A stretch of DNA of 64,000 bases from Parcubacteria group bacterium GW2011_GWA2_40_23 (lineage in GTDB: Bacteria; Patescibacteriota; Patescibacteriia; UBA11705; JABHMO01), in assembly GCA_000996245.1 (NCBI GenBank), contig LBYP01000002.1, positions 5,352-69,351 of the forward strand, read 5' to 3'. The notes under the pieces were generated by a model. The model saw only the letters and a list, made by a program, of their open reading frames with translations, ran no database searches and was not told where the DNA came from. Made by a program: the position numbers and the translations under genes. Each line of letters starts with the position of its first letter. Positions within the stretch are counted from its first letter, which is position 1. Below, piece after piece: positions 1 through 62,660 of this stretch.

Positions 1-186
1 ATTTGTAAGATCGCAAAAAAACTTTGCTTTGATTAAAGCATTCTCTTGAAAAGCTGTCCCTGTTTCCTCCACATCATCAGTAATACTTAGATCTTCCAAG
101 GATACGGCCTCAATGTTCCAAAGAGCTAAAAACTTTTTGAGTTCTTGAGCTTTTCCGACATTATGTGTTGCGATTACGAGTTTCAT
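1..186 (-). CDS. rdgB: Non-canonical purine NTP pyrophosphatase RdgB/Ham1, N-terminal 62 aa only; the gene runs off the window edge
   Basis: Minus-strand ATG at 186..184. The translation MKLVIATHNVGKAQELKKFL... matches the Ham1/RdgB N-terminal signature (xxTxNxGK). Confidence 0.7.
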   Translation of the reverse strand, partial: MKLVIATHNVGKAQELKKFLALWNIEAVSLEDLSITDDVEETGTAFQENALIKAKFFCDLTN

Positions 187-298
187 ATATAAATATTCTA
201 CAAACAAACAAATCAACCCTGCACTATAAAGTGTGCCCTTTAAGTACAGGGCAAGCAAAGCAAACAATTATGCAAAAAGTCCTTTGACCATTCTTAGC

Positions 299-343
299 TA
301 ATCATAGTAATCACTTGGTAATCATGCTAATTATAGTCAATCA
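299..343. repeat. Array of five TAATCAT-like direct repeats (TAATCAT, TAATCAC, TAATCAT, TAATTAT, TCAATCA) at 9-11 bp phasing; iteron-like
   Basis: Read directly from the sequence. A near-identical array occurs at 18662-18696. Both abut a GC-rich minus-strand terminator. Confidence 0.4.
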
Positions 344-345
344 GA

Positions 346-985
346 GTAAAAAAAGGAGGGTCGACGCACTGTAGCATCGACCCTCGTGAACATGTCTTTA
401 CCACCGCGACCTTGACGGGCTTGCGATCAGAACAGCCCCGATCTTGGTCCGGCATGGATCCTCGGGGAACCGGCGTCCCATAGATACTGGGACGCGATGG
501 AGCTACGTGAACCAGCTCGGATACCGCTTGCACATGGCAAGTTCTCCTTCTGCTGTGGCCGCGAGCGTGGTGCTCGTTCTTCGGCCTCGTTCTTGCTCCA
601 GAACCGAGTTCGTGTGGCACGTCGCGAGTTGAGCTCTCGCAGCGTGCCGTCAGAAGCCGAAGATGAGCGTACCGGAGTGGAGCCGCATGAAGCCTCCGTC
701 TGCGGAATTCTCGCATCCAATTTCGAACTTCGAACCGTGTTGATCTCTTGTTGCTTGGTGAACAGCCTGTTGCACTCGGTGTTCCGCGGACTTGCTCGAT
801 GAACACAGTCTACAACAAATGAGTTCTGCGGACTTGTCCTACACGGGCGGGGGACGTGCTCTGAGCATGCGCACCTCCATGTTGTGGAACCTTGAGAACC
901 AACGTGGTGTTGATGGCCAGAAGCCGATATTCGAACGAACGCGGCTTCTTTCTCGCTAACACCACAAAAGCGAGACGATAAAAAT
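346..985 (-). other. GC-rich non-coding island A1, with no protein-like ORF in any frame
   Basis: Composition shifts abruptly. All six-frame ORFs are Arg/Ser-rich low-complexity and read through a terminator. The island ends (minus strand) in a 9-bp GC hairpin followed by a T7 tract. Confidence 0.4.
348..385 (-). terminator. Intrinsic terminator, minus strand (GAGGGTCGA-loop-TCGACCCTC followed by a T tract)
   Basis: Perfect 9-bp stem at 356-364/377-385, preceded on the plus strand by A7, which reads as U7 on the minus strand. Confidence 0.6.
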
Positions 986-1025
986 ATCCTATACTATTTA
1001 TAAACTAATGTCAAGTTTTTGGCAA

Positions 1026-1056
1026 AGGAAAAAGCGGTCGAGATGAGTCGAACCGC
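1026..1056 (-). terminator. Intrinsic terminator, minus strand, closing GC-rich island A2
   Basis: Stem GCGGTCG/CGAACCGC with an A-run on the plus-strand 5' side, which gives a U-run on the minus strand. Confidence 0.45.
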
Positions 1057-1270
1057 TTCTGGATTACTTGCTCGCCACGCCGTGGCACGCCGCTTCGAGG
1101 GAATCCAACCCCGGAAAAGCCTGTCTGTGGTAAACACTAAGGGGCCTTTCGACCTTAGTGCTCTGGACACTCTTCCATAGATCCTCCATGGTGTTTGTGC
1201 GTGCGCGAATCGTGACCGAACAGGATCTCTGCGTTGCTTCGCCGTTGATACGGCTTGGCAGTCCAGCATG
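1031..1270 (-). other. GC-rich non-coding island A2, multi-hairpin and possibly a structured RNA
   Basis: GC-rich block separated from A1 by about 45 nt of AT-rich sequence. Several perfect 7-8 bp stems are visible, for example ACTAAGG...CCTTAGT. No SD-led ORF is present. Confidence 0.3.
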
Positions 1271-1342
1271 TATATAATAGCACAATAATAAAATTATGTC
1301 AATAGCAGTTTTACTTATTTTTGAAAATAGTCTAATTTAAGC

Positions 1343-1379
1343 AAAAAAAGAAGGGGTACCGCGTGAGCAAATACCCCTT
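1343..1379 (-). terminator. Intrinsic terminator, minus strand (AAGGGGTA-loop-TACCCCTT followed by a T7 tract)
   Basis: 8-bp stem with A7 on the plus-strand 5' side. Confidence 0.55.
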
Positions 1380-1443
1380 AGAACCGTGCCACCATTACAG
1401 TGGCGAGATCATGGTGTCCTCCAGTAATGGGGAAGACTAAAGT
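1345..1443 (-). ncRNA. Candidate ~100-nt small RNA, divergent from rsmI
   Basis: Minus-strand TTGACA (plus 1473-1478), a 16-17 nt spacer, then an A/T-rich -10 (plus ~1450-1456). Nested hairpins follow (CCATTAC...GTAATGG, GTGGC, GGGGTA), ending in the terminator. The only internal ORF is 5 codons. Confidence 0.25.
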
Positions 1444-1533
1444 GACTACATTATTACATAAAACAGCTTATATGTCAATAGTTAAGCCTGAGAAATAGAC
1501 AAAATCGTCTGATTTTAGTATAATTTACATAAT

Positions 1534-2175
1534 ATGCTTTACATTGTAGCCACACCTATTGGAAACCTCGAAGACATTACTTTTAGAGCTTTAAGAACGC
1601 TTAAGGAGGTGGATGTCATCTTGTGTGAAGATACAAGACAGACCATGAAGCTTTTGTCCCATTTTCAGTTTTCAAAGCATCTGATTTCTTTGCATCAGCA
1701 CACCTCGGACGAAAAGATGTTAGCTCTCTTAAAACAGTATGAAAATATTGCTTATGTAAGTGATGCAGGCACCCCAGGAATTTCTGACCCAGGAAATAAG
1801 TTAGTCGCTAAAGCGGTTGAATTGAATCTTCCGGTTTGTCCAATTCCAGGAGTTGCTGCCGTGACGACTGCACTTAGCATTTCTGGTTTTCAAACAGATC
1901 ATTTTATGTTTTTGGGTTTTATGCCCCTGCGCGGGCGAACCAAAATATTTAATTTAATCAAAGATTCTGATGTGACTATCGCATTTTACGAATCACCACA
2001 TCGAATAATCAAAACACTCGAAGCATTAAAGCCAATCGTGGGGAATCGCTTATTCTGCGTTTGTCGAGAACTGACTAAAAAGTTCGAAACTATTTACCGC
2101 GGAACTGTCGACGAGGTGCTTCCCGAAATATCTAAAAAAGTAAAAGGTGAATTTACAATTATTATAAGTAAATAA
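1534..2175 (+). CDS. rsmI: 16S rRNA (cytidine1402-2'-O)-methyltransferase RsmI
   Basis: MLYIVATPIGNLEDITFRALRTL...VILCEDTR, characteristic of the RsmI/tetrapyrrole-methylase fold. TATAAT at 1519-1524 lies 9 nt before the ATG. Confidence 0.85.
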   Translation: MLYIVATPIGNLEDITFRALRTLKEVDVILCEDTRQTMKLLSHFQFSKHLISLHQHTSDEKMLALLKQYENIAYVSDAGTPGISDPGNKLVAKAVELNLPVCPIPGVAAVTTALSISGFQTDHFMFLGFMPLRGRTKIFNLIKDSDVTIAFYESPHRIIKTLEALKPIVGNRLFCVCRELTKKFETIYRGTVDEVLPEISKKVKGEFTIIISK

Positions 2176-2179
2176 GCTC

Positions 2180-2230
2180 GTAAGCCCCGCACCACAAACT
2201 GCCTTTGGGTGCAGGGTAAACGAGATAAGT
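2180..2230 (-). repeat. 51-nt structured intergenic element, copy 1, in reverse orientation relative to copy 2
   Basis: Exact reverse complement of 6066-6116. Contains the hairpin CCCCGCACC...GGTGCAGGG. The flanking motif gtgaaataagc..caagg (2229-2249) is also shared. Confidence 0.65.
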
Positions 2231-2295
2231 GAAATAAGCTAATTCAAGGTTTACTTAGCACTTAACTTGCTTAAAACTTATCTCGCTAGAAAAAT

Positions 2296-3807
2296 ATGGA
2301 AAAATATTACATAACAACACCTATTTATTACGCTAATAGCAAGCCACATATTGGTCATGCTTATACGACGATAGTGGCCGATATTTTAGCGCGATATTAT
2401 CGTTTAAAATTAGGACAAGAAAATGTTTGGTTTTTAACGGGGACAGATGAACATGGTTCAAAAATTGCGCAGGTTGCAGAAAAAGAAGGCAAAGATCCTC
2501 AAACTTTTGTTGATGATGTTTCAGCTCTTTTTCAGTTGTCTTGGAAAAATTTGAATATTAGTAATAACGATTATATTCGCACGACAGAAAAAAGACATGA
2601 AGACGTCGTCACTGAGATCCTCACGAAATTGAAATCAGCTAAAACTCCACTTGGCAATGACTTTATTTATTCTGGTGATTATGAGGGTTTATATTGTGTC
2701 GGTTGTGAATCATACAAAAAGCCTGAAGATTTGGTAGACGATAAATGTCCAGATCATAACAAAGAACCAGAATTGCTTAAAGAAAGTAATTGGTATATTC
2801 GTTTGTCAGATTATGCCGAGATACTCAAAAATAAAATTCAAAACGATGAAATAAAAGTTTTGCCAGCCGATCGTAAAACAGAAGTTTTGTCATTTATCGA
2901 ACAAGGTTTGGAGGATGTGGCCATTAGTCGTCAACAAGTTAAATGGGGCATACCGGTACCATTCGACAAAGATCAAACTATATACGTTTGGGTCGATGCT
3001 CTTCTAAACTATATCTCAGCACTTGGTTATCCAAATGACGAAAAGTTTAAAAAATTTTGGCCAGCAAACACTCAACTCTTGGCAAAAGATATTTTAAAGT
3101 TTCATGCCATCATTTGGCCAGCGATGCTCATTGCGGCCGGCATCGAGGCACCCAAAGAACTTTTTATCCATGGTTATTTCACTATTGATGGTAAGAAAAT
3201 GAGTAAAACTATTGGTAATGTTATTGATCCAAATGATTTAGTCTCTGAGTTCGGAGTTGACGCCGCACGCTATTTAATCGTTTCACAATTTCCATTTGGA
3301 CAAGACGGTGACGTCAAAGCTGATGAATTTAAAGTAAAATATAATTCTGATCTTGCTAATGGTATCGGTAATTTAGTTAGTCGTGTAATTACGATGGCTG
3401 AAAAGTATTGCGATAATAAAATTCCAGCATTGAAATATACTGGCACTTTTAATTTAACCGCACTTTGGAAAAGAGTGGAACAAAATTATGTAGATTATAA
3501 GATTTTTGAGAACCTTAGAGAAATTCAAGAATTAATTAGCTGGGCTGACAATCATATTGCCGAAACTACGCCTTGGGCCAAGGCTAAAGAAGGGAAGGCA
3601 GCAGAAGTAAACCAAATCCTTTATAATTTAATTGAAGTCCTGAAACAACTTGCGGGGTTATTACTTCCGATACTTCCACAAACCGGAGCAGAGATTCTTA
3701 AACGTATAAATTTTGCTTCTACTGATATAGAATCAATTAAAACACTGAATAATCTCGACTCAAAAAAAACATTAGATAAAGGTGAGCCTTTATTCCTTAG
3801 AAAGTAG
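2296..3807 (+). CDS. metG: Methionyl-tRNA synthetase (short form)
   Basis: HIGH motif (PHIGHAYT), KMSKS variant (KKMSKT), and a Cys-containing CP knuckle (CVGCESYKK...CPDH). Confidence 0.9.
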   Translation: MEKYYITTPIYYANSKPHIGHAYTTIVADILARYYRLKLGQENVWFLTGTDEHGSKIAQVAEKEGKDPQTFVDDVSALFQLSWKNLNISNNDYIRTTEKRHEDVVTEILTKLKSAKTPLGNDFIYSGDYEGLYCVGCESYKKPEDLVDDKCPDHNKEPELLKESNWYIRLSDYAEILKNKIQNDEIKVLPADRKTEVLSFIEQGLEDVAISRQQVKWGIPVPFDKDQTIYVWVDALLNYISALGYPNDEKFKKFWPANTQLLAKDILKFHAIIWPAMLIAAGIEAPKELFIHGYFTIDGKKMSKTIGNVIDPNDLVSEFGVDAARYLIVSQFPFGQDGDVKADEFKVKYNSDLANGIGNLVSRVITMAEKYCDNKIPALKYTGTFNLTALWKRVEQNYVDYKIFENLREIQELISWADNHIAETTPWAKAKEGKAAEVNQILYNLIEVLKQLAGLLLPILPQTGAEILKRINFASTDIESIKTLNNLDSKKTLDKGEPLFLRK

Positions 3808-3863: not shown

Positions 3864-4706
3864 ATGATAGACACTCATGCCCATGTTAATTTTAGCACCT
3901 TTAAAGATGATGCTGATGCAGTAATTCAATCAGCTTTAGATAAAAAAATTGCTATTATTAATGTTGGGTCGCAAATCAGCACTAGTCGTCGTGCCGTCGA
4001 GTTGGCCGCTAAGTATCCTCGTGTGTTTGCAGCTATTGGTTTACATCCGATTCAATTACAGGATGAAGAAGTAATTGAGGAGGGAATCACTTTCACTACA
4101 CGGAAAGAAGAGTTTAACTACTCAACATACAAAGAGTTGGCTAAACAGAAACATGTCATCGCTATTGGTGAGACTGGTTTGGATTATTACCATATTCAAG
4201 AAAGGCCTGAATTTAAAGAGATTGTTGAAGATCAGAAGAAAGTTTTTCATCAACATATAGATTTGGCAAATGAAATGAAATTGCCCATGATCATTCATAC
4301 CCGAAGTGGTAAAAATAATAGTGATGCGGCGTGCATCGATATTCTCTCGGAGTTAAGAAAAAATAAACCTAAATATGGTGGAGTTATGCATTGCTATGCT
4401 GGTCCGCCTGAATTGATTAAGGATTTTGTGGCCCTGGATATGTATATTAGTTTTAACGGTATTTTAACTTTTGATAAAACGGGACTCATCGAAAAAATCT
4501 TGTTCTCAACACCCGAAGATCGAATTCTAACTGAAACCGATTGTCCTTATCTAACTCCTGCGCCATATAGAGGCAAACGTAATGAACCGGCCTATGTGGA
4601 TTTTGTAGTTTCTAAAATCGCTGAACTAAAAAATCGTGAATTTGCTGAAATTGATCTTTTAACGACCAGAAACGCAGAACGACTTTTTCATATCGCTTTA
4701 CAATAG
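3864..4706 (+). CDS. tatD: TatD-family metal-dependent DNase/hydrolase
   Basis: N-terminal MIDTHAHVNF (HxH metal motif) and a TIM-barrel-sized ORF. Confidence 0.85.
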   Translation: MIDTHAHVNFSTFKDDADAVIQSALDKKIAIINVGSQISTSRRAVELAAKYPRVFAAIGLHPIQLQDEEVIEEGITFTTRKEEFNYSTYKELAKQKHVIAIGETGLDYYHIQERPEFKEIVEDQKKVFHQHIDLANEMKLPMIIHTRSGKNNSDAACIDILSELRKNKPKYGGVMHCYAGPPELIKDFVALDMYISFNGILTFDKTGLIEKILFSTPEDRILTETDCPYLTPAPYRGKRNEPAYVDFVVSKIAELKNREFAEIDLLTTRNAERLFHIALQ

Positions 4707-4770
4707 GATTTTATGATCAAGCTTCGTATTGTGACTTATAAACAAGAATGCTTGATTTTTTTTTATTTTC

Positions 4771-5097
4771 ATGATAGATTGTAGGTGCTTTTCTATACCT
4801 ATGCAAAATTCTAAGAATGAGAAAGTTTGGTGGCAACCGGCCATCGAAATCTTTGTTCAAGTCTCTGGATGGATTGTATTCCCGCTACTCATCGGTATTT
4901 ATTTAGGCCGATGGTTACAGGAAAAATGGGGACATGAACCGTGGATATATATAGGTTGTGTTGCGGCTGCTTTCATTATTACAAATGTGGGTTTAATACT
5001 GATTGTTTTAAAGGCGGCCAAGAAAATGCAAAAAGTCATCGACGAATCCGAAAAACAAGTTCAGAATCACAAAGAGACTGAGCAAGTAAAAAAATAA
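4771..5097 (+). CDS. Small membrane protein preceding atpB, probably AtpZ/AtpI-like. An alternative ATG at 4801 has AGGTG upstream.
   Basis: Two TM segments, its position immediately 5' of atpB, and a Gly-rich C-terminal TM segment (GIYLGRWLQEKWG). Confidence 0.4.
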   Translation: MIDCRCFSIPMQNSKNEKVWWQPAIEIFVQVSGWIVFPLLIGIYLGRWLQEKWGHEPWIYIGCVAAAFIITNVGLILIVLKAAKKMQKVIDESEKQVQNHKETEQVKK

Positions 5098-13705: not shown

Positions 13706-13990
13706 ATGGATCTGATCGGATTGGACATGAAGGCTCGTCAGGCTCGGGAGAAGTTCACGGTCGTGACCAAGCTGGGTGATGCGGTCTGGACGCCGGCGGA
13801 GATCAACCGACTGGTGCACCAGTACAGAACCATCATCAGCACGCTTCCCAGGATGCCCTCCGTCGCGATTCTCGCGGGAGAGTACTCCAAGGACCAGCTC
13901 GTCGCGTTCCTCGGGACGGACAACTTCACCGTCGAGCTGATGGTCGGTCGCCAGAACCCCAAGCTGCCGTTCAGCGCTCCGATGCTCTGA
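13706..13990 (+). CDS. Small GC-rich protein, paralogue 1 (94 aa), unknown family
   Basis: GGAGGA SD 5 nt upstream. Shares KFTVVT..G..VW...RL...PR.SVAI.AGE.SK...LGTD.F.VEL.V with the next ORF. Confidence 0.5.
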   Translation: MDLIGLDMKARQAREKFTVVTKLGDAVWTPAEINRLVHQYRTIISTLPRMPSVAILAGEYSKDQLVAFLGTDNFTVELMVGRQNPKLPFSAPML

Positions 13991-14020: not shown

Positions 14021-14248
14021 ATGCTGGTTCTGTTGACTCCTGCCAAGTTCACCGTCGTGACCTTGTTCGGTTTTGGGGTGTGGCATAAGGACGAGGTTCA
14101 ACGTCTGGCGAACAGGCTGAGAGCCTGCGTCTACACGTATCCAAGGAGGCTTTCGGTCGCGATCATCGCGGGAGAGCACTCCAAGGCTTCGATCGTGGAC
14201 GTCCTCGGTACGGACGACTTCGGCGTCGAGCTGAAGGTCAAGTGCTAG
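14021..14248 (+). CDS. Small GC-rich protein, paralogue 2 (75 aa)
   Basis: AGAGAGGAA SD. About 45% identical to paralogue 1 over the shared core. Confidence 0.5.
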   Translation: MLVLLTPAKFTVVTLFGFGVWHKDEVQRLANRLRACVYTYPRRLSVAIIAGEHSKASIVDVLGTDDFGVELKVKC

Positions 14249-17396: not shown

Positions 17397-18377
17397 CTAG
17401 TTGGTGAGCACGTGGCTGATGTCCATGTCCGGACTGACGATCAGCTTCTGTGCCGTGTTCTCGCCGATGACCTCGATCGCCTCGTTCGGACCCGTACCCA
17501 GGTTCGGGATGAACCCGATCTGGATGTACGAGTACTGCTCGAGGGGATCGACGTCGCAGCGCACGTCGAAGGCCGTCGTGGTGCCCTTGGGTAGGAAGAT
17601 GTCCGTCAGGTCATGGAAGACGAGCTGCGCGTTCCATCCCTCGGTGTTTACGTAGGGTTGACCCTGGTAGGCCAGGGTGTGGCCACCCGAGATCAGGCTG
17701 CAGTTGCGCACCTTCTCGAAGTGGTCCCCGGTCATCATCATCGACAGCGTGACCTCGGTGAGAACGCCGTCCTCGGCGTAGGCCGTGTCTTCGGCGTCGA
17801 CCATCAGGTAGAACGTGAACAAGTGGACCTGCGAACCTTCGACGAGCAGGTTGCTGGTTTCCTTCTTCCAGACCATGACGGTCGAGAATTGCGGCTCCAT
17901 GTACGGCGCGCAGACTTCTTCGACGGAGCAGTAGAACGTACGGTTGCCCCTGGCGATGGCGTCGTAGAAGGCTTGGAAGTTGCTGTGCCAGACGTTCATC
18001 ATCGCGATCTGCTTCTGCGCCGCGATCCGTCGCAGCTTGTAGGTCGGGATCATGGCGATGGGGTATTTGGGGTCTCCCGCCAAGGCCAGCTTGATCTTCC
18101 AGGTGTTGGTCGTCGCGTTCTGCGTCGCCTTGGCCAGGAACTGGCCCTCGTACTGGAAGTAGTAGCTGATGTTGTCGGTGAAGTTGGTCCACCCGACGCA
18201 GTCGGTGCCGTACCAGTCCGGCAACTGGCCGGTCAGGTTGAAGTAGTCGATGCTTTCCTGGTTGTACGTCTCGGCGACGTACTTGAGGTCGGCGAAGGTC
18301 TGGGGCGGACCGCCCCCGGCGTACGCGGCACTCGAGAAGCACAGGACGGCGAGCAGGGCGATGAGGGTCTTCTTCAT
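17397..18377 (-). CDS. GC-rich secreted protein of unknown function (326 aa)
   Basis: Signal peptide MKKTLIALLAVLCFSSAAYA. GAAGGAGGAA SD. Consensus promoter upstream. Natural amino-acid composition, unlike the overlapping frames. Confidence 0.6.
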   Translation of the reverse strand: MKKTLIALLAVLCFSSAAYAGGGPPQTFADLKYVAETYNQESIDYFNLTGQLPDWYGTDCVGWTNFTDNISYYFQYEGQFLAKATQNATTNTWKIKLALAGDPKYPIAMIPTYKLRRIAAQKQIAMMNVWHSNFQAFYDAIARGNRTFYCSVEEVCAPYMEPQFSTVMVWKKETSNLLVEGSQVHLFTFYLMVDAEDTAYAEDGVLTEVTLSMMMTGDHFEKVRNCSLISGGHTLAYQGQPYVNTEGWNAQLVFHDLTDIFLPKGTTTAFDVRCDVDPLEQYSYIQIGFIPNLGTGPNEAIEVIGENTAQKLIVSPDMDISHVLTN

Positions 18378-18740: not shown

Positions 18741-19364
18741 CTAGAAGTTCCAGACCAGGCGCAGGTACAGCACGTGGTCACCCGCGATCTCCGGCGTGAA
18801 GTCGTAGGCGACCCAGATTCGGCCCGCGCCGAGCAAGATCGAGGGGCCGATGGCCGCCTCGTCGAACGTCTTCTCGGAGAAGAAGTTCTCCTGGACGATG
18901 CCGAACCCAGCGATGTTGCCTGGCTTCATCCAGTCGAGGGTGGTCAGCGTGTAGTAGTTCCGCTGCACGTGCCCCTTGTCGCCGTCGACAGGGAAGTAGA
19001 CGTCGCCCTCGACGCACAGGAGCAGGTCGCTTGGCAAGGGCTGCGTGAGCCAGATGCTCGCGAGAGCGGACATGCCGCCGTCGTTGGTCATCCAGAGACC
19101 TCCCAGGAGCTTGAGGTTCGTCTTCGTCGACAGGACGCTCATCTCCGGCCCGAAGTAGCCGAAGATCATGGAGTTGCCGCGCATTGACACCAGGCCGGTG
19201 GCGTGGGCGTAGATGCCGCCCGTGATGTTCTCGCTGAGCGTGAACGGGGAGAAGGTTCGGCCCAGGGTGACCAGGAACTGGCCGTTGGACTCGACCTTGG
19301 CCTCGGCGGCCGTGGGGATGATCATCGCACACAGCAACAGGATCACGAGCAGGAAGCGCTTCAT
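18741..19364 (-). CDS. GC-rich small outer-membrane beta-barrel-like protein (208 aa)
   Basis: Signal peptide MKRFLLVILLLCAMIIPTAAEA. C-terminus ...YLRLVWNF (alternating hydrophobics ending in Phe). GGAGG SD. TTGACT promoter-like sequence upstream. Confidence 0.5.
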   Translation of the reverse strand: MKRFLLVILLLCAMIIPTAAEAKVESNGQFLVTLGRTFSPFTLSENITGGIYAHATGLVSMRGNSMIFGYFGPEMSVLSTKTNLKLLGGLWMTNDGGMSALASIWLTQPLPSDLLLCVEGDVYFPVDGDKGHVQRNYYTLTTLDWMKPGNIAGFGIVQENFFSEKTFDEAAIGPSILLGAGRIWVAYDFTPEIAGDHVLYLRLVWNF

Positions 19365-19438
19365 CGAAGCCTCCAAAGTGGTGTGACGTCCCGTGAAACA
19401 GGACATTCTAATTTATCATAAATAATAAAAAAGTCAAG

Positions 19439-19797: not shown

Positions 19798-20115
19798 ATG
19801 GATGCACGACAAAAGGTCGTGGCAGTGTTCGATCTTCCGCACGGTGAAGGTCAGGTCGATCTGATGGTCGACATGGCACTTGAGTCCAGCTGGACTGGCC
19901 AAGGAATCGATACTTCGTACTTCATGTTCCACAAGCCGCACTGCGGCGGTCCCATGCGGCCGATCAAGGTGGCGGACAAGAAGATGGTTCTGTACTGCAG
20001 CGGTTGCGTGTTGCGTCTTCAGCTTCTGATCATGAAACTGCCTACGAACCTGGGCGAACTCGGTGAAGCGATCAACGAGACCTGCACGCATTCGGATCTG
20101 CCCTCACGTTTCTAA
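19798..20115 (+). CDS. GC-rich Zn-ribbon-like small protein (105 aa), unknown function
   Basis: AAGGAGGT SD. HKPHCGG...YCSGC Cys/His cluster. Strong terminator follows. Confidence 0.5.
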   Translation: MDARQKVVAVFDLPHGEGQVDLMVDMALESSWTGQGIDTSYFMFHKPHCGGPMRPIKVADKKMVLYCSGCVLRLQLLIMKLPTNLGELGEAINETCTHSDLPSRF

Positions 20116-29686: not shown

Positions 29687-29878
29687 CTAGGCGCGTTGCT
29701 TGACCTTGAGTTGCATGTACAAGGCGATAGGAAAGAAGATCAGCCCGAAGAGTCGGTAGATCAGGAAGTCGCCAGCAGGAACCCCTGAACGTAAGGTTGG
29801 ATCATCTCTGACGAGACTCGCAGCGAAATAACCCCAGAGCAAATTGAGCAGGACGACGGCTACTGCGATAGAAAGCAT
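29687..29878 (-). CDS. GC-rich small membrane protein (63 aa, two TM)
   Basis: GGGGGAGG SD 3 nt upstream. TTGACA-N17-TAATAT promoter-like sequence upstream (minus strand). Hydrophobic helices. Confidence 0.45.
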   Translation of the reverse strand: MLSIAVAVVLLNLLWGYFAASLVRDDPTLRSGVPAGDFLIYRLFGLIFFPIALYMQLKVKQRA

Positions 29879-44956: not shown

Positions 44957-45220
44957 AATTTATGTAAATTTCATCAACATTATAGTCTATTTTGAGCAAC
45001 AAGTAAATGACAGTCAAGGTCAACGAATATATTGGCTAAATTTATTTAAAATATTGACATATCGTTTGAAGGGGTTGACAAAATTGTAATTATTTGCTAT
45101 TATTACCTGTTATTCAAGTGTTTACCTTAGCTTTTTGAGGCTGAGTTAATTTCCGCCTTTTAAAGGTGTAGTGAACACCACAAGTGATCTGTTCCCCAAC
45201 CATCCGTGAGGAGGTGCCTG

Positions 45221-46735
45221 ATGCTGTACCAGAAACTGCTCGATGCGAAGATCGGAGTCGGTCCGGCCACCATCACCAAGCTCGACGAGGCGGGTCTCAA
45301 GACCGCCGAGGCCATCCTGGCCGCCGGGCTCGACGGGCTGCGCGCCATCAAGGTCTTCCCGCCGATCGCGGGCAAGATCCTCGAGGTCGCGCTCGCCAAC
45401 CCGACGCCCGCCACCGAGATCGAGGCCGCGTCGGCCCCGATCATCCTCCACCCCGACGACGCGGCCAAGGTGGCCGAGGTCGCCCCCACCACCACGAAAA
45501 ACGAGACCCCCGCGGTCCTGGTCAAGCGGCAGACGGTGTTCGCCGCCAAGCTCGAGGAGGCCGCCAAGGCCAACGGTACGACGGTGGAGGAGCTCCGCGC
45601 CGCCGCCAAGGCCAACGTGCCGGCCGAGAAGCCGGTCGTGGTGACCCACAAGACCCTGGCCAAGCCCGAGAACGAGCACGTGAACTTCATCGACGTCGGG
45701 ATCGAAACCCCGACCGAGTTCACGAGCCCCGTGCGTCTGCGCGACTTCTTCGACAAGCTGCCCAAGGGGCAGGTGCCGGACAGCGCGCGCTACATCAAGA
45801 ACCTCTTCCCCGTCTGCGCGATGTGTCGCGCCGCGGGCAGCACGAAGACCCTCCAGATCGACCACGTGCACGTGCTCGTGGTCACCCGTCTCGACGGCAG
45901 CGTCAACAGCGGTTTGTTCTGCGACGACCACATCACGGTGGCGTACGGACAGGCCAAGGACCTGGTCAAGGACGGGAAGCTGAAGGAGGTCAAGATCATC
46001 TGGCTGCGCGAGGCGTGGGCCAACCTGACCCGCGCGTACAGGGCGCAGGTCGACGAGGCGCGCGAAGAGCGCTACCGCAAGGAGCGCGCCGACCGCCGCA
46101 CGGCCGCCCTCCGGGCCGTGATGGAGGATCTCGGCTCGGTGACCAGCGAGCACTGGATGACCGACGAGCAGCTCGGCAGCTACGTGTCGCCCATGGACGT
46201 CCCGGTCTTCACGTGCGGACTCGAGGCGAAGCAGGCCCGTGAGCTGCACCTCCTGCCCAACGACAAGGAGAAGGGTACGTTCAAGGGGCGCTGGGGGCGG
46301 TTCTACGACGAGTACGGCATCCGGCTCGTCATGCGGCCCCCGCAGGACCTGACCCAGCACAACACGCTCGTCCAGCACTTGCGGGACGACGCCAAGGCCG
46401 CCCAGGCCACGCCGTTCTTCCCCGTCGTCCTGGTCCGCCGTTACTTCGGTGACGACCTGGGCTGGCGCTACCTGGCGATCCACGAACTGGTCATCGAGGA
46501 GTTCGTGGCGACCTACGAGCAGGCGCACAACTTCAAGGTGCGCACCGGGGCCATGGCCTACGAGTGGCTGACCCGTCGCTGGGAGGTCCAGCGCGAAGAA
46601 GCCGCCAAGGCCGCGGCGCAGGCGTTCGCCAAGAGCGACGAAGGCAAGGCGCTGAACGCCTTCCTCAACGCCGCCCCGGACGACGAGGCCGCCGCCGACA
46701 GCGCCCTGTTGGCCGGCAGCGCCCACAAGAAGTAA
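45221..46735 (+). CDS. GC-rich 504-aa protein with N-terminal tandem helix-hairpin-helix motifs and a central HNH-like nuclease motif
   Basis: GAGGAGGTG SD. HhH motif LLDAKIGVGPATITKL. HNH-like motif CAMC..LQIDHVHV..(12)..NSGLFCDDH. Confidence 0.5.
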   Translation: MLYQKLLDAKIGVGPATITKLDEAGLKTAEAILAAGLDGLRAIKVFPPIAGKILEVALANPTPATEIEAASAPIILHPDDAAKVAEVAPTTTKNETPAVLVKRQTVFAAKLEEAAKANGTTVEELRAAAKANVPAEKPVVVTHKTLAKPENEHVNFIDVGIETPTEFTSPVRLRDFFDKLPKGQVPDSARYIKNLFPVCAMCRAAGSTKTLQIDHVHVLVVTRLDGSVNSGLFCDDHITVAYGQAKDLVKDGKLKEVKIIWLREAWANLTRAYRAQVDEAREERYRKERADRRTAALRAVMEDLGSVTSEHWMTDEQLGSYVSPMDVPVFTCGLEAKQARELHLLPNDKEKGTFKGRWGRFYDEYGIRLVMRPPQDLTQHNTLVQHLRDDAKAAQATPFFPVVLVRRYFGDDLGWRYLAIHELVIEEFVATYEQAHNFKVRTGAMAYEWLTRRWEVQREEAAKAAAQAFAKSDEGKALNAFLNAAPDDEAAADSALLAGSAHKK

Positions 46736-62318: not shown

Positions 62319-62660
62319 CTACGCAGCTGCAACGATTTTCTTGATTTTTCGACGCAGTTCAATCGCATCGAAAGGCTTGGTGACCACTTCGTCGGGTTGC
62401 TCGGCACAAGAGAAGTGTTCTGGCGGGGCGCTTGAAACCATGATGATGCGAGCATCAGGGCAAAGTCGTCGTGCGTAGACGATGAACTCGGCTCCCGTCA
62501 TTCCAGGCATGTCGTGGTCTGTGACAATGACCCGGGCTGAGCGACCGCTAAGGCATTTTAAGGCCTCGAATGGTGAATGATGCGTTCGGTGTGGCAAAGT
62601 ACCAGCAACAGCCTTGAATAGAGCTAGATTCTCTGGCAGATCATCAACGAAAAGCACCAT
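62319..62660 (-). CDS. GC-rich stand-alone CheY-like receiver (REC) domain protein (113 aa)
   Basis: AGGGAG SD. LFVDD, phospho-acceptor region VIVTDHDMPGMTG, and the conserved TKPF lysine. Confidence 0.6.
   Translation of the reverse strand: MVLFVDDLPENLALFKAVAGTLPHRTHHSPFEALKCLSGRSARVIVTDHDMPGMTGAEFIVYARRLCPDARIIMVSSAPPEHFSCAEQPDEVVTKPFDAIELRRKIKKIVAAA

Follow-up and report, generated by a model that had tools for sequence, protein, structure and literature searches.

The DNA analysed here is a window of 64,000 nucleotides (nt) from Parcubacteria group bacterium GW2011_GWA2_40_23 (contig LBYP01000002.1, positions 5,352 to 69,351), a Parcubacteria genome from Rifle groundwater; the GC content of the window is 38%. 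Near its left end, the gap between rdgB (Ham1/RdgB family) and the divergently oriented rsmI gene carries an array of three short units, all on the minus strand, each with its own promoter, its own terminator and at least one very short open reading frame (ORF) led by a strong Shine-Dalgarno (SD) sequence. The signals within the array, and their recurrence in related genomes, suggest that these are probably independent, translated mini-ORF transcription units. The rsmI gene (window RsmI protein accessions KKR07547.1 and KKR55347.1) is followed in the window by genes for MetRS, TatD and ATP synthase (Pfam). The GC content, about 0.35 in the flanks, reaches 0.51-0.64 at nt 350-950 and 1000-1250. 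The longest ORFs in the gap (159 aa at nt 327-806 of the minus strand, then 101, 97 and 91 aa) are junk-like, Arg-rich frames lacking a Pfam match or a protein homologue, which bears out the first-pass annotation of this DNA in its claim that nt 187-1533 hold no protein-like ORF. Gene finders and RNA-family scans miss such loci, calling junk ORFs or nothing at all; the locus is among the most strongly signalled in this reduced genome.

The units are named A, B and C in the order of transcription. Their 5' ends are predicted from the promoters, and all unit features are sequence signals (Table 1). The first-pass annotation reported a TTGACA promoter for the ~100-nt unit, which is correct, but all three units have one, of the sigma-70 type and close to TTGACA-17-TATAAT, with 10-11 of the 12 consensus positions matched. 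It also proposed three minus-strand units, each with its own terminator, and on this, as on where the terminators lie, the scan, the sequence and the folds agree; the terminators of units A and B were read from the sequence and the folds and not from the scan. The lengths found, ~631 and ~240 nt for the two large GC-rich bodies and ~100 nt for the third unit, are likewise in accord with it. No plus-strand promoter was detected inside the units by the promoter scan. By these signals, units A-C are autonomous promoter-terminator cassettes.

Table 1. Features of the rdgB-rsmI gap in the window and of the corresponding gaps in related genomes (MFE, minimum free energy; identities refer to RsmI)
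Locus	Feature	Position (nt)	Strand	Remarks
Window	Ham1/RdgB N-terminus	1-186	-	Pfam
Window	Gap	187-1533		Identity 100%; 1347 bp
Window	AT-rich spacer and rdgB leader	187-347	-	Weak promoter-like site 330-301 and small hairpin; outside the units
Window	Unit C terminator	348-385	-	12-bp stem then U7; found by promoter/terminator scan
Window	Unit C transcript	349-979	-	~631 nt, 57% GC; three SD/mini-ORF modules
Window	Unit C module c, MCKRYPSWFT	503-549	-	AAGGAG 549-544, ATG 535-533, ORF 535-503, stop TAG; decapeptide type
Window	Unit C module b, MRLHSGTLIFGF	616-700	-	GGAGG, ATG 688-686, stop TGA 652-650, then nested hairpin
Window	Unit C module a, MLRARPPPV	839-878	-	GGAGG, ATG 868-866, ORF 868-839, stop TAG
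Window	Unit C promoter	986-1014	-	TTGACA-17-TAGGAT; 10/12 consensus matches; one spacer base differs in L182
Window	Unit B transcript	1028-1267	-	~240 nt; predicted from promoter and terminator
Window	Unit B terminator	1029-1059	-	AGAAGCGGU...ACCGCUU then U5
Window	Unit B stop-codon hairpin	1135-1160	-	CACUAAGG-loop10-CCUUAGUG; stop codon in 5' arm; type B stem
Window	Unit B SD and mini-ORF, MEECPEH	1155-1187	-	GGAGG, ATG 1178-1176, TAA 1157-1155; 7 codons
Window	Unit B promoter	1274-1302	-	TTGACA-17-TATTAT and TG; 11/12 consensus matches
Window	Unit A terminator	1343-1379	-	AAGGGGUA...UACCCCUU then U7
Window	Unit A transcript	1344-1443	-	~100 nt; MFE -35.1 kcal/mol; ~95% identical in L182
Window	Unit A SD and mini-ORF, MISPL	1395-1422	-	GGAGG 1422-1418, ATG 1412-1410, TAA 1397-1395
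Window	Unit A promoter	1450-1478	-	TTGACA-17-AATAAT and extended TG; 11/12 consensus matches; hexamers kept in L182
Window	RsmI-type methylase (rsmI)	1534-2175	+	Pfam
L162	Gap	309-372		Identity 92%; 64 bp; no unit
L168	Gap	2192-2373		Identity 82%; 182 bp; no unit
L164	Gap			Identity 83%; 817 bp; decapeptide-type ORFs MSRRYPSGCPPGV, MRRRYPSGCT
L163	Gap			Identity 83%; 827 bp; decapeptide-type ORFs MRRCFPSGFF, MRRRYPSGDT; type B stem CGUUAGG/CCUAACG
L172	Gap			Identity 67%; 1174 bp; decapeptide-type ORFs MRYTSGFP, MYTSGFD
L180	Gap			Identity 65%; 1191 bp
L178	Gap			Identity 65%; 1340 bp
L182	Gap			Identity 94%; 1377 bp; decapeptide-type ORFs MWNRYPSWFT, MHTRFPNWFE; type B stem CUCUAGG/CCUAGAG
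L171	Gap			Identity 69%; 1486 bp; decapeptide-type ORFs MKIRYPSGDT, MTFRFPSGFD, MHFRYPSHFL; type B stem CGUAGAGG/CCUCUACG
L174	Gap			Identity 64%; 1556 bp; decapeptide-type ORFs MRVRHPSGFV, MQRRFPSGGT, MTFRFPNWFF
L176	Gap			Identity 66%; 2488 bp; decapeptide-type ORFs MRRFTSGFL, MMRRYPSSPY, MRRYPSGFC; type B stem CGCUAAGG/CCUUAGCG

Each unit body contains an extended SD sequence (AAGGAGGU-like) with a start codon 4-9 nt further on and an ORF of 5-12 codons. This combination of strong SD, start codon and tiny ORF occurs five times in 971 nt, compared with 0.09 ± 0.30 times (maximum 2) in 300 dinucleotide shuffles. In unit A the SD can pair with an upstream GUCUUCC, and the stop codon lies in the loop of the hairpin GCCAC/GUGGC; in unit C the last of the three modules is a canonical member of a family of decapeptide ORFs described below. 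The first-pass annotation had regarded the two GC-rich bodies as non-coding islands and the ~100-nt unit as a candidate small RNA (sRNA). The locus is indeed gene-free in the conventional sense, but SD-led mini-ORFs run throughout it and the decapeptide of unit C is, by its codon pattern, under selection at the amino-acid level; since every unit has an SD-led mini-ORF, the units are better described as putatively translated mini-ORF RNAs. Reassignment or read-through of UAG was rejected, as TAG is the stop codon of 10 of 45 housekeeping genes. A type I toxin-antitoxin system, with its hydrophobic toxin of ~19-60 aa and an antisense RNA that overlaps or adjoins it, was also rejected, the peptides being of 5-12 aa and polar or basic, and the units having no plus-strand promoter.

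The possibility had been raised that the bodies are decayed high-GC genes; the reading weighed here is that they are remnants of such protein genes acquired horizontally. The window does hold genuine high-GC genes in promoter-terminator cassettes, and because these other GC-rich islands are real genes with an extreme GC content at the third codon position (GC3), a test of periodicity is informative. The GC content by codon position is 0.61/0.55/0.55 in unit C and 0.52/0.54/0.63 in unit B, against 0.67/0.42/0.95, 0.52/0.38/0.91 and 0.53/0.42/0.92 in the real GC-rich genes, and a sliding profile of three-base GC periodicity showed no sustained phase within the units. There were no Pfam matches to the gap ORFs or to six-frame translations, phmmer found no match to the 159-aa ORF among 1.84 billion representative proteins, and the six frames, concatenated, matched none of 5.8 billion proteins. 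These searches, which correspond to the BLASTX-type check suggested along with the idea, reconstruct no disrupted gene. With the architecture of the array also kept in 10 genomes, an origin of the units in decayed genes is extremely improbable, and that suggestion of the first-pass annotation falls.

Known RNA families do not account for the locus either. Rfam 15, which includes 6S, SRP, RNase P, tmRNA, OLE, ROOL, GOLLD, HEARO, raiA, T-box and riboswitches, gave no match at the gathering threshold in the whole window, and none, at permissive thresholds, in the related loci L163, L164, L168, L171, L174, L176 and L182. The Rfam check of the locus that had been proposed was run permissively (nt 1-3000, E<=1) and returned no family, only a chance match to P31 on the wrong strand, which scored 23.8 bits where the cutoff is 40. 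No tRNA, rRNA or other Rfam-recognised RNA genes were found across the 64-kb window (ARAGORN, Rfam), and 6S, SRP, RNase P, tmRNA and the large non-coding RNA classes were rejected for want of an Rfam or ARAGORN match. A repeat or mobile-element family was rejected on other grounds: the GC islands of the window have no sequence in common with one another, and the repeats within the gap are short and resemble chance matches.

The orthologous locus was found in 11 other genomes by exact-protein look-ups of the closer RsmI homologues (L162 to L182 in Table 1). All of the genomes are metagenome-assembled, and the array occurs in only 10 related genomes, which are not independent of one another. Gene order is kept, with Translin, a hypothetical protein, Ham1 (with or without an N6_N4 methyltransferase), the gap, RsmI (with or without NUDIX), MetRS, TatD and ATP synthase. 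The flanking genes have 70-82% DNA identity among relatives, and the contents of the gaps are not alignable by BLAST. Every long gap contains two to five GC-rich units with consensus promoter and terminator, all on the same strand and with strong-SD mini-ORFs. Over 29 units (9.8 kb, 10 genomes), a strong SD followed by a start codon and an ORF of <=16 codons occurs 35 times, compared with 0.92 expected and a single antisense case, and AAGGAGG is the most enriched k-mer in the units after the T-runs of the terminators. Further afield, blastn and nhmmer searches with the units gave no match in 80 loci around distant rsmI genes, and protein-anchored scans of genome and metagenome collections, which reached RsmI identities of <=59%, found no arrays. 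In ~160 more distant loci (1.45 Mb), a promoter with a strong SD and an ORF of <=14 codons was seen four times, each AT-rich and chance-like. The array is also present or absent between near neighbours, relatives with RsmI identities of 92% and 82% being without it. Judged by this distribution, the array is clade-restricted and dispensable.

In six relatives, a PF01555 (N6_N4) methyltransferase gene lies directly downstream of the array (L171 7672-8514, L172 7954-8826, L174 7593-8444, L176 1667-2512, L178 2803-3660 and L180 2961-3809). It shows a faint UPF0020 RNA-methylase match in some relatives and is not found in the subclade of the window; in at least L176, L178 and L180, an extended -10 element, TGCTATAAT, is located 7-20 nt before its start. 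L178 also carries two short minus-strand units of 86 nt (4823-4908) and 61 nt (4655-4715) with a consensus promoter, a hairpin/terminator and a common AGAACGACNACNGTCG. Neither of the two has an SD or an ORF; they could be units that have decayed, or a fourth type.

An arrangement of short SD-led ORFs with terminators after them is reminiscent of attenuators, and the array could on that account be one long cis-regulatory leader, its mini-ORFs encoding leader peptides and its terminators attenuating rdgB/Ham1 (or the N6_N4 methyltransferase and Ham1 in relatives). The distance of 30-45 nt from the last terminator to the methyltransferase start in the six relatives would fit such an arrangement. 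However, each unit has a near-consensus promoter of its own, and in L176, L178 and L180 the last terminator is followed by the element TGCTATAAT before the methyltransferase gene begins. In the window, 160 nt with a promoter-like site separate terminator C from rdgB, and rdgB persists without any array in L162 (64-bp gap) and L168 (182-bp gap). A leader function is, on this evidence, highly unlikely.

Units of types A and B have in common the placement of the stop codon. Type A units (~100-185 nt) have ORFs of 3-5 codons (MISPL, MRRPG, MRRQG, MICG, MGL), the last sense codons of which form the 5' arm of a hairpin of 4-5 bp with the stop codon in its loop. Beyond the window this geometry is seen in L171, L174, L176 and L180, and the five stems are unrelated to each other and fully complementary (GCCAC/GUGGC, CCGGG/CCCGG, CAAGG/CCUUG, UGCGG/CCGCA and GGCC/GGCC). 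At the first-unit position of L164 there is a bare ATG-TAG. Type B units (~220-420 nt) have an ORF of 5-11 codons that ends within a hairpin of 7-8 bp, the stop codon being part of its 5' arm, and this hairpin shows compensatory changes at three stem positions (L182, L163, L171, L176). The type B peptide is not conserved, being MEECPEH in the window and MTYVSVL in L182; both ORFs have seven codons and stop at the same place of the hairpin, which carries two compensatory pairs. When scored by a script (a Watson-Crick hairpin of >=5 bp containing the stop codon), 5 of 7 type A stops lie in a hairpin (background 0.28, p = 0.02) and 6 of 8 type B stops do so (background 0.21, p = 0.0014). MAFFT alignments of such short hairpins are structurally inaccurate, and the arms were read by eye and tested by the script. 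RNA-level blocks are also common to L171 and L176, and to L172 and L180. Types A and B retain the length of the ORF and the geometry of the hairpin, but not the peptide. A stop codon placed in a hairpin is claimed for these two types only, because type C is not enriched for it.

Type C units are of 416-1275 nt and comprise two to four modules, often ~130-200 nt apart (wider in L174 and L176). A module consists of an SD and a ~10-codon ORF with the consensus M-x-x-R-[Y/F]-P-S-[G/W]-[F/C/D]-x, the stop codon being nearly always UAG, and beyond these elements the modules cannot be aligned. Of 16 RYPSG-type ORFs, 12 have exactly 10 codons; start codons are ATG, GTG or TTG. Over core codons 4-8 of the 16 aligned ORFs, synonymous differences (pS 0.67) exceed nonsynonymous ones (pN 0.25), while for the same bases in the other two frames pN >= pS. 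The serine codons (AGC, AGT, TCA, TCC) come from both codon families, and the Arg, Tyr, Pro and Gly codons vary synonymously. Judged by this codon pattern, the decapeptide is under purifying selection at the amino-acid level. What is selected appears to be the sequence of the peptide in unit C and the geometry in units A and B. Only module c of the window matches the consensus. Counted from the predicted 5' end, modules a and b start at 112 and 292 nt, compared with 120 and 300 nt in L163 and 114 and 309 nt in L164, and because of these matching positions they look like diverged copies. Module a looks, by eye, like the L164 ORF MSRRYPSGCPPGV with the RYPSG core deleted; at the position of module a, L164 has C-P-P-G. 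The type C unit of L176 (3022-4296, minus strand; 1275 nt, 59% GC) has three RYPSG-type ORFs and, with an MFE z of -10.6, is by far the most structured of the set.

A comparison with L182, the relative with the most similar RsmI, shows the locus to be a mosaic. In unit B the promoter is kept, the 5' half is replaced or unalignable, and the 3' half is ~90% identical; this half is recognisably homologous in L163 as well, and the 5' arm of the terminator, CAGAAGCGGT, is common to the window and L163. The first ~130 nt of unit C are ~95% identical in L182, and A-R-P-P-P of module a is kept through five synonymous changes (GCA to GCT, CGT to CGC, CCC-CCG-CCC to CCG-CCC-CCG). After ARPPP the sequence differs, and the ORF, of 9 codons in the window, has 16 in L182. 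The ~85 nt at 700-616, which hold module b and the hairpin downstream of it, show no difference between the two genomes. In module c, residues 2-3 have changed and one Arg codon carries a synonymous change. An additional module, RFPNWF, is present in L182 and absent from the window. The spacer at 187-347 is not alignable with L182.

The units fold more stably than dinucleotide shuffles, with z = -4.3, -2.9 and -4.4 for C, B and A (-5.0, -2.1 and -3.1 in a separate run), and the same was found for all 26 units tested in the window and its relatives. In the 3' half of unit B, substitutions between the window and L182 affect 11% of paired and 29% of unpaired positions, and four of the seven changed MFE pairs remain canonical, two of them compensatory. 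In the 3' part of unit C only 7 of the 25 changed pairs of the window MFE structure stay canonical, so that only local hairpins are claimed here; a conserved global fold was rejected, the window MFE structure not being preferentially preserved in L182. The 'compensatory' counts from MAFFT and alifold on sequence pairs are uninformative. The first-pass annotation's view of the bodies as structured RNAs thus holds for stability and local hairpins and not for a defined fold of the 630-nt body; the label 'structured RNA' is safe for local hairpins and overall stability, not for a defined global fold.

These properties could be thought to describe untranslated structured sRNAs, in which GGAGG would serve as a binding site for protein or RNA (a Csr/Rsm sponge, or a mimic of the anti-SD) and the ORFs would be incidental. 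Own promoters and terminators, high GC content, the stability of all 26 units and the repeated GGA-containing motifs are as expected of such RNAs, and in part of unit B the RNA is conserved although the ORF is not. Like the units, the Csr/Rsm sponge RNAs (CsrB, RsmZ) are structured, run from a promoter to a terminator of their own and carry repeated SD-like GGA motifs; a sponge would be expected to present many such motifs in hairpin loops and to be free of coding constraint. In the array, by contrast, each SD precedes a start codon and an in-frame ORF with synonymous-site evolution, which is not the mark of a sponge. The strong SDs stand before a canonically spaced start and an early stop far more often than expected, with the single antisense case noted above; the synonymous pattern and the switches between serine codon families cannot be accounted for at the RNA level, and ORF length is kept where sequence has been replaced. 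Untranslated sRNAs are accordingly improbable, if less so than a leader.

If the mini-ORFs are translated, the effector may be either the nascent chain or a released micropeptide. A mechanism acting in cis by ribosome engagement is tentatively preferred, at somewhat less than even confidence. Ribosomes would load on the very strong SDs and translate a few codons. In units A and B, termination would take place inside a conserved hairpin that the ribosomes must melt, the peptide sequence being free to vary while ORF length and geometry are kept; in unit C, a conserved nascent chain that contains proline (R-Y/F-P-S-G or A-R-P-P-P) would slow the ribosome or hold it in place. How far ribosomes occupy the GC-rich RNA might then determine its conformation, its lifetime or its availability. 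This model is preferred because ribosome engagement is the one property common to all three types and because in module a only a stall-type polyproline motif is conserved. A peptide product is excluded for types A and B by the bare start-stop unit and the freely varying peptides.

Paralogue-specific residues conserved across genomes favour a different view, in which the units are tiny but otherwise ordinary protein-coding genes and unit C is a micropeptide factory: a polycistronic mRNA releasing related decapeptides that act in trans as signals, inhibitors or cofactors, with the GC-rich hairpins merely insulating or stabilising the cistrons. Selection at the amino-acid level and the very strong expression signals would be expected of it, as would the two to four copies per transcript with their paralogue-specific residues, such as P-[S/N]-[W/H]-F in the last module of the window, L182, L171 and L174. 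Yet no genes for export, processing or modification are adjacent, and module a keeps only A-R-P-P-P while its peptide goes from 9 to 16 residues. The peptides of types A and B, of 0-8 residues and in one case a bare start-stop, are unconserved even at 94% RsmI identity. This main rival to the cis mechanism is rather unlikely, if well ahead of the untranslated sRNAs.

Several observations weigh against ribosome engagement in cis. Since the close relatives L162 and L168 lack the array, it is dispensable. Transcription starts and translation are read from the sequence alone, and the unit transcripts hold no downstream gene for a stalled ribosome to regulate. Base-pair probabilities show neither clear sequestration nor exposure of the SDs, which are unremarkable in this respect; the MFE pairs of the 3' part of unit C are poorly preserved in L182, as noted above; and type C stop codons lie in hairpins in 6 of 29 cases (background 0.23, not significant). 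Several paralogous peptide types are each kept across genomes, which fits released peptides at least equally well. To our knowledge, R-Y/F-P-S-G is not an arrest motif. The RAPP-like arrest motif is a C-terminal R-[A/G]-P-[P/G] (PMC12992588, PMC10951233); the residue at its position 2 has to be a small one (PMC12992588). The core in the array, by comparison, is R-[Y/F]-P-S-G at residues 4-8 of 10, and A-R-P-P-P, found only in module a, is polyproline and not RAPP.

No description of such arrays was found in full-text searches of the literature, and each of the nearest concepts, namely leader or arrest peptides, dual-function sRNAs, minigenes, morons and Csr sponges, has at least one defining feature that the locus lacks. 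The ORFs of leader and arrest peptides (ErmCL, ErmBL, ErmDL, TnaC; RAPP-type ApdA/ApdP/SecM) are, like the units, SD-led, of ~5-25 codons and near hairpins, and, like unit C, have a conserved Arg/Pro-rich amino-acid sequence in flanking RNA that is not conserved. Drug-dependent Erm, Cat and Msr leader peptides have a size range that includes ten-codon ORFs. The units differ in ending in their own terminator, after which the next promoter follows, without a regulated downstream cistron; the unit C ORF is repeated two to four times per RNA, and stalling is only proposed here. Of the features that define an attenuator, the array has a short SD-led ORF with a conserved amino-acid sequence (the decapeptide, ARPPP), whereas a place in the 5' leader of a regulated gene on one transcript is lacking.

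Dual-function sRNAs (SgrS/SgrT, RNAIII/hld, SR1/SR1P) likewise combine a promoter, a rho-independent terminator and a small ORF, and those known encode one peptide of ~26-45 aa (PMC12310071, PMC5521070). The units share with them, by their sequence signals, the character of an independent unit with a translatable ORF, but their ORFs have 1-13 codons, with several per RNA, and the units stand in a syntenic array of three to four. In minigenes (lambda bar; the 23S rRNA pentapeptide 'E-peptide'), a strong SD and an ORF of 2-6 codons suffice, and the effect comes from translation itself and not from a stable product, through peptidyl-tRNA drop-off or eviction of a drug from the exit tunnel. Minigenes are single, cryptic or phage-borne, whereas the units here are dedicated, strongly promoted and chromosomal, with conserved hairpin geometry. 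Phage morons are autonomous promoter-gene-terminator cassettes of deviant GC content. The units are similarly self-contained (GC 0.49-0.57 in a host of 0.38) and variably present between close relatives, but they lie between housekeeping genes in conserved synteny, hold this position across the clade down to 64% RsmI identity, and have a tiny ORF as payload. A degenerate motif scan of 2.9 million viral contigs gave no match, and a viral origin was rejected on that basis. The insect tarsal-less/polished-rice RNA, at first deemed non-coding, has several tandem ORFs of ~11 codons for related peptides; it is eukaryotic and without SD sites, and its likeness to unit C is in layout alone.

The array may, as a tentative proposal that we hold with less confidence than the cis mechanism itself, represent a class of autonomous, ribosome-engaging RNAs of Patescibacteria that has not been described before, acting by programmed ribosome loading or stalling. 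Such RNAs would be strongly transcribed and GC-rich. All that is conserved in them would be an SD of exceptional strength, the start codon after it and a tiny ORF, either hairpin-ended or encoding a proline-containing decapeptide, and they would act neither through a protein product nor through base pairing. Conceivable examples are a sensor of tunnel-binding compounds, a sensor of translation-factor or aminoacyl-tRNA status, and a ribosome reservoir. If translated, the mini-ORFs would be among the shortest conserved bacterial cistrons (10 codons, in tandem), and the units would be a rare case of free-standing RNA with ribosome engagement as its conserved feature. In the uncultured, episymbiotic Parcubacteria, they would also open a way to study how translation is controlled or how peptides signal.

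The locus points to a wider, genome-wide pattern in this lineage, that of GC-rich, fast-evolving and orphan promoter-terminator cassettes in a genome of 38% GC. Three genes of the window, at 45206-46735 (plus strand), 17397-18377 and 18741-19406 (both minus strand), have GC3 values of 0.95, 0.91 and 0.92, compared with 0.25-0.36 in housekeeping genes. All three are flanked by a near-consensus promoter on one side and a strong terminator on the other, Pfam gave no match to any of them, and two of the products have a signal peptide. For the protein of 509 aa, a search of 5.8 billion proteins yielded just one homologue, 65% identical and carried on the contig of the 94%-RsmI relative. These genes are fast-evolving orphans and not recent imports from a known high-GC donor. 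Further small GC-rich cassette genes are found at 62319-62660 (-), 13706-13990 (+), 14021-14248 (+), 29687-29878 (-) and ~19798-20100 (+). One encodes a receiver-domain protein (Pfam Response_reg, E = 3e-9) and the other four of the five have no Pfam family; these four are two tandem paralogues (94 and 75 aa, with a 195-nt repeat of 70% identity), a membrane-like protein of 63 aa and an ORF of ~100 aa.

A second, recurrent insertion site for GC-rich cassettes is located just after bacA (uppP) in L164 (2960-3640), L171 (2780-3300) and L174 (1400-3130), where minus-strand genes for small membrane-like proteins have their own promoters and terminators. This site is empty in the genome of the window, in which bacA is directly followed by an NTP-transferase gene (L001). 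On the other side of rsmI, the rsmI-metG spacer of the window (2176-2295) contains a 9-bp GC hairpin, CCCCGCACC...GGUGCAGGG, without an Rfam match, and a 10-bp long-range inverted repeat, ACGAGATAAG...CTTATCTCG; in several relatives a NUDIX gene occupies this position instead.

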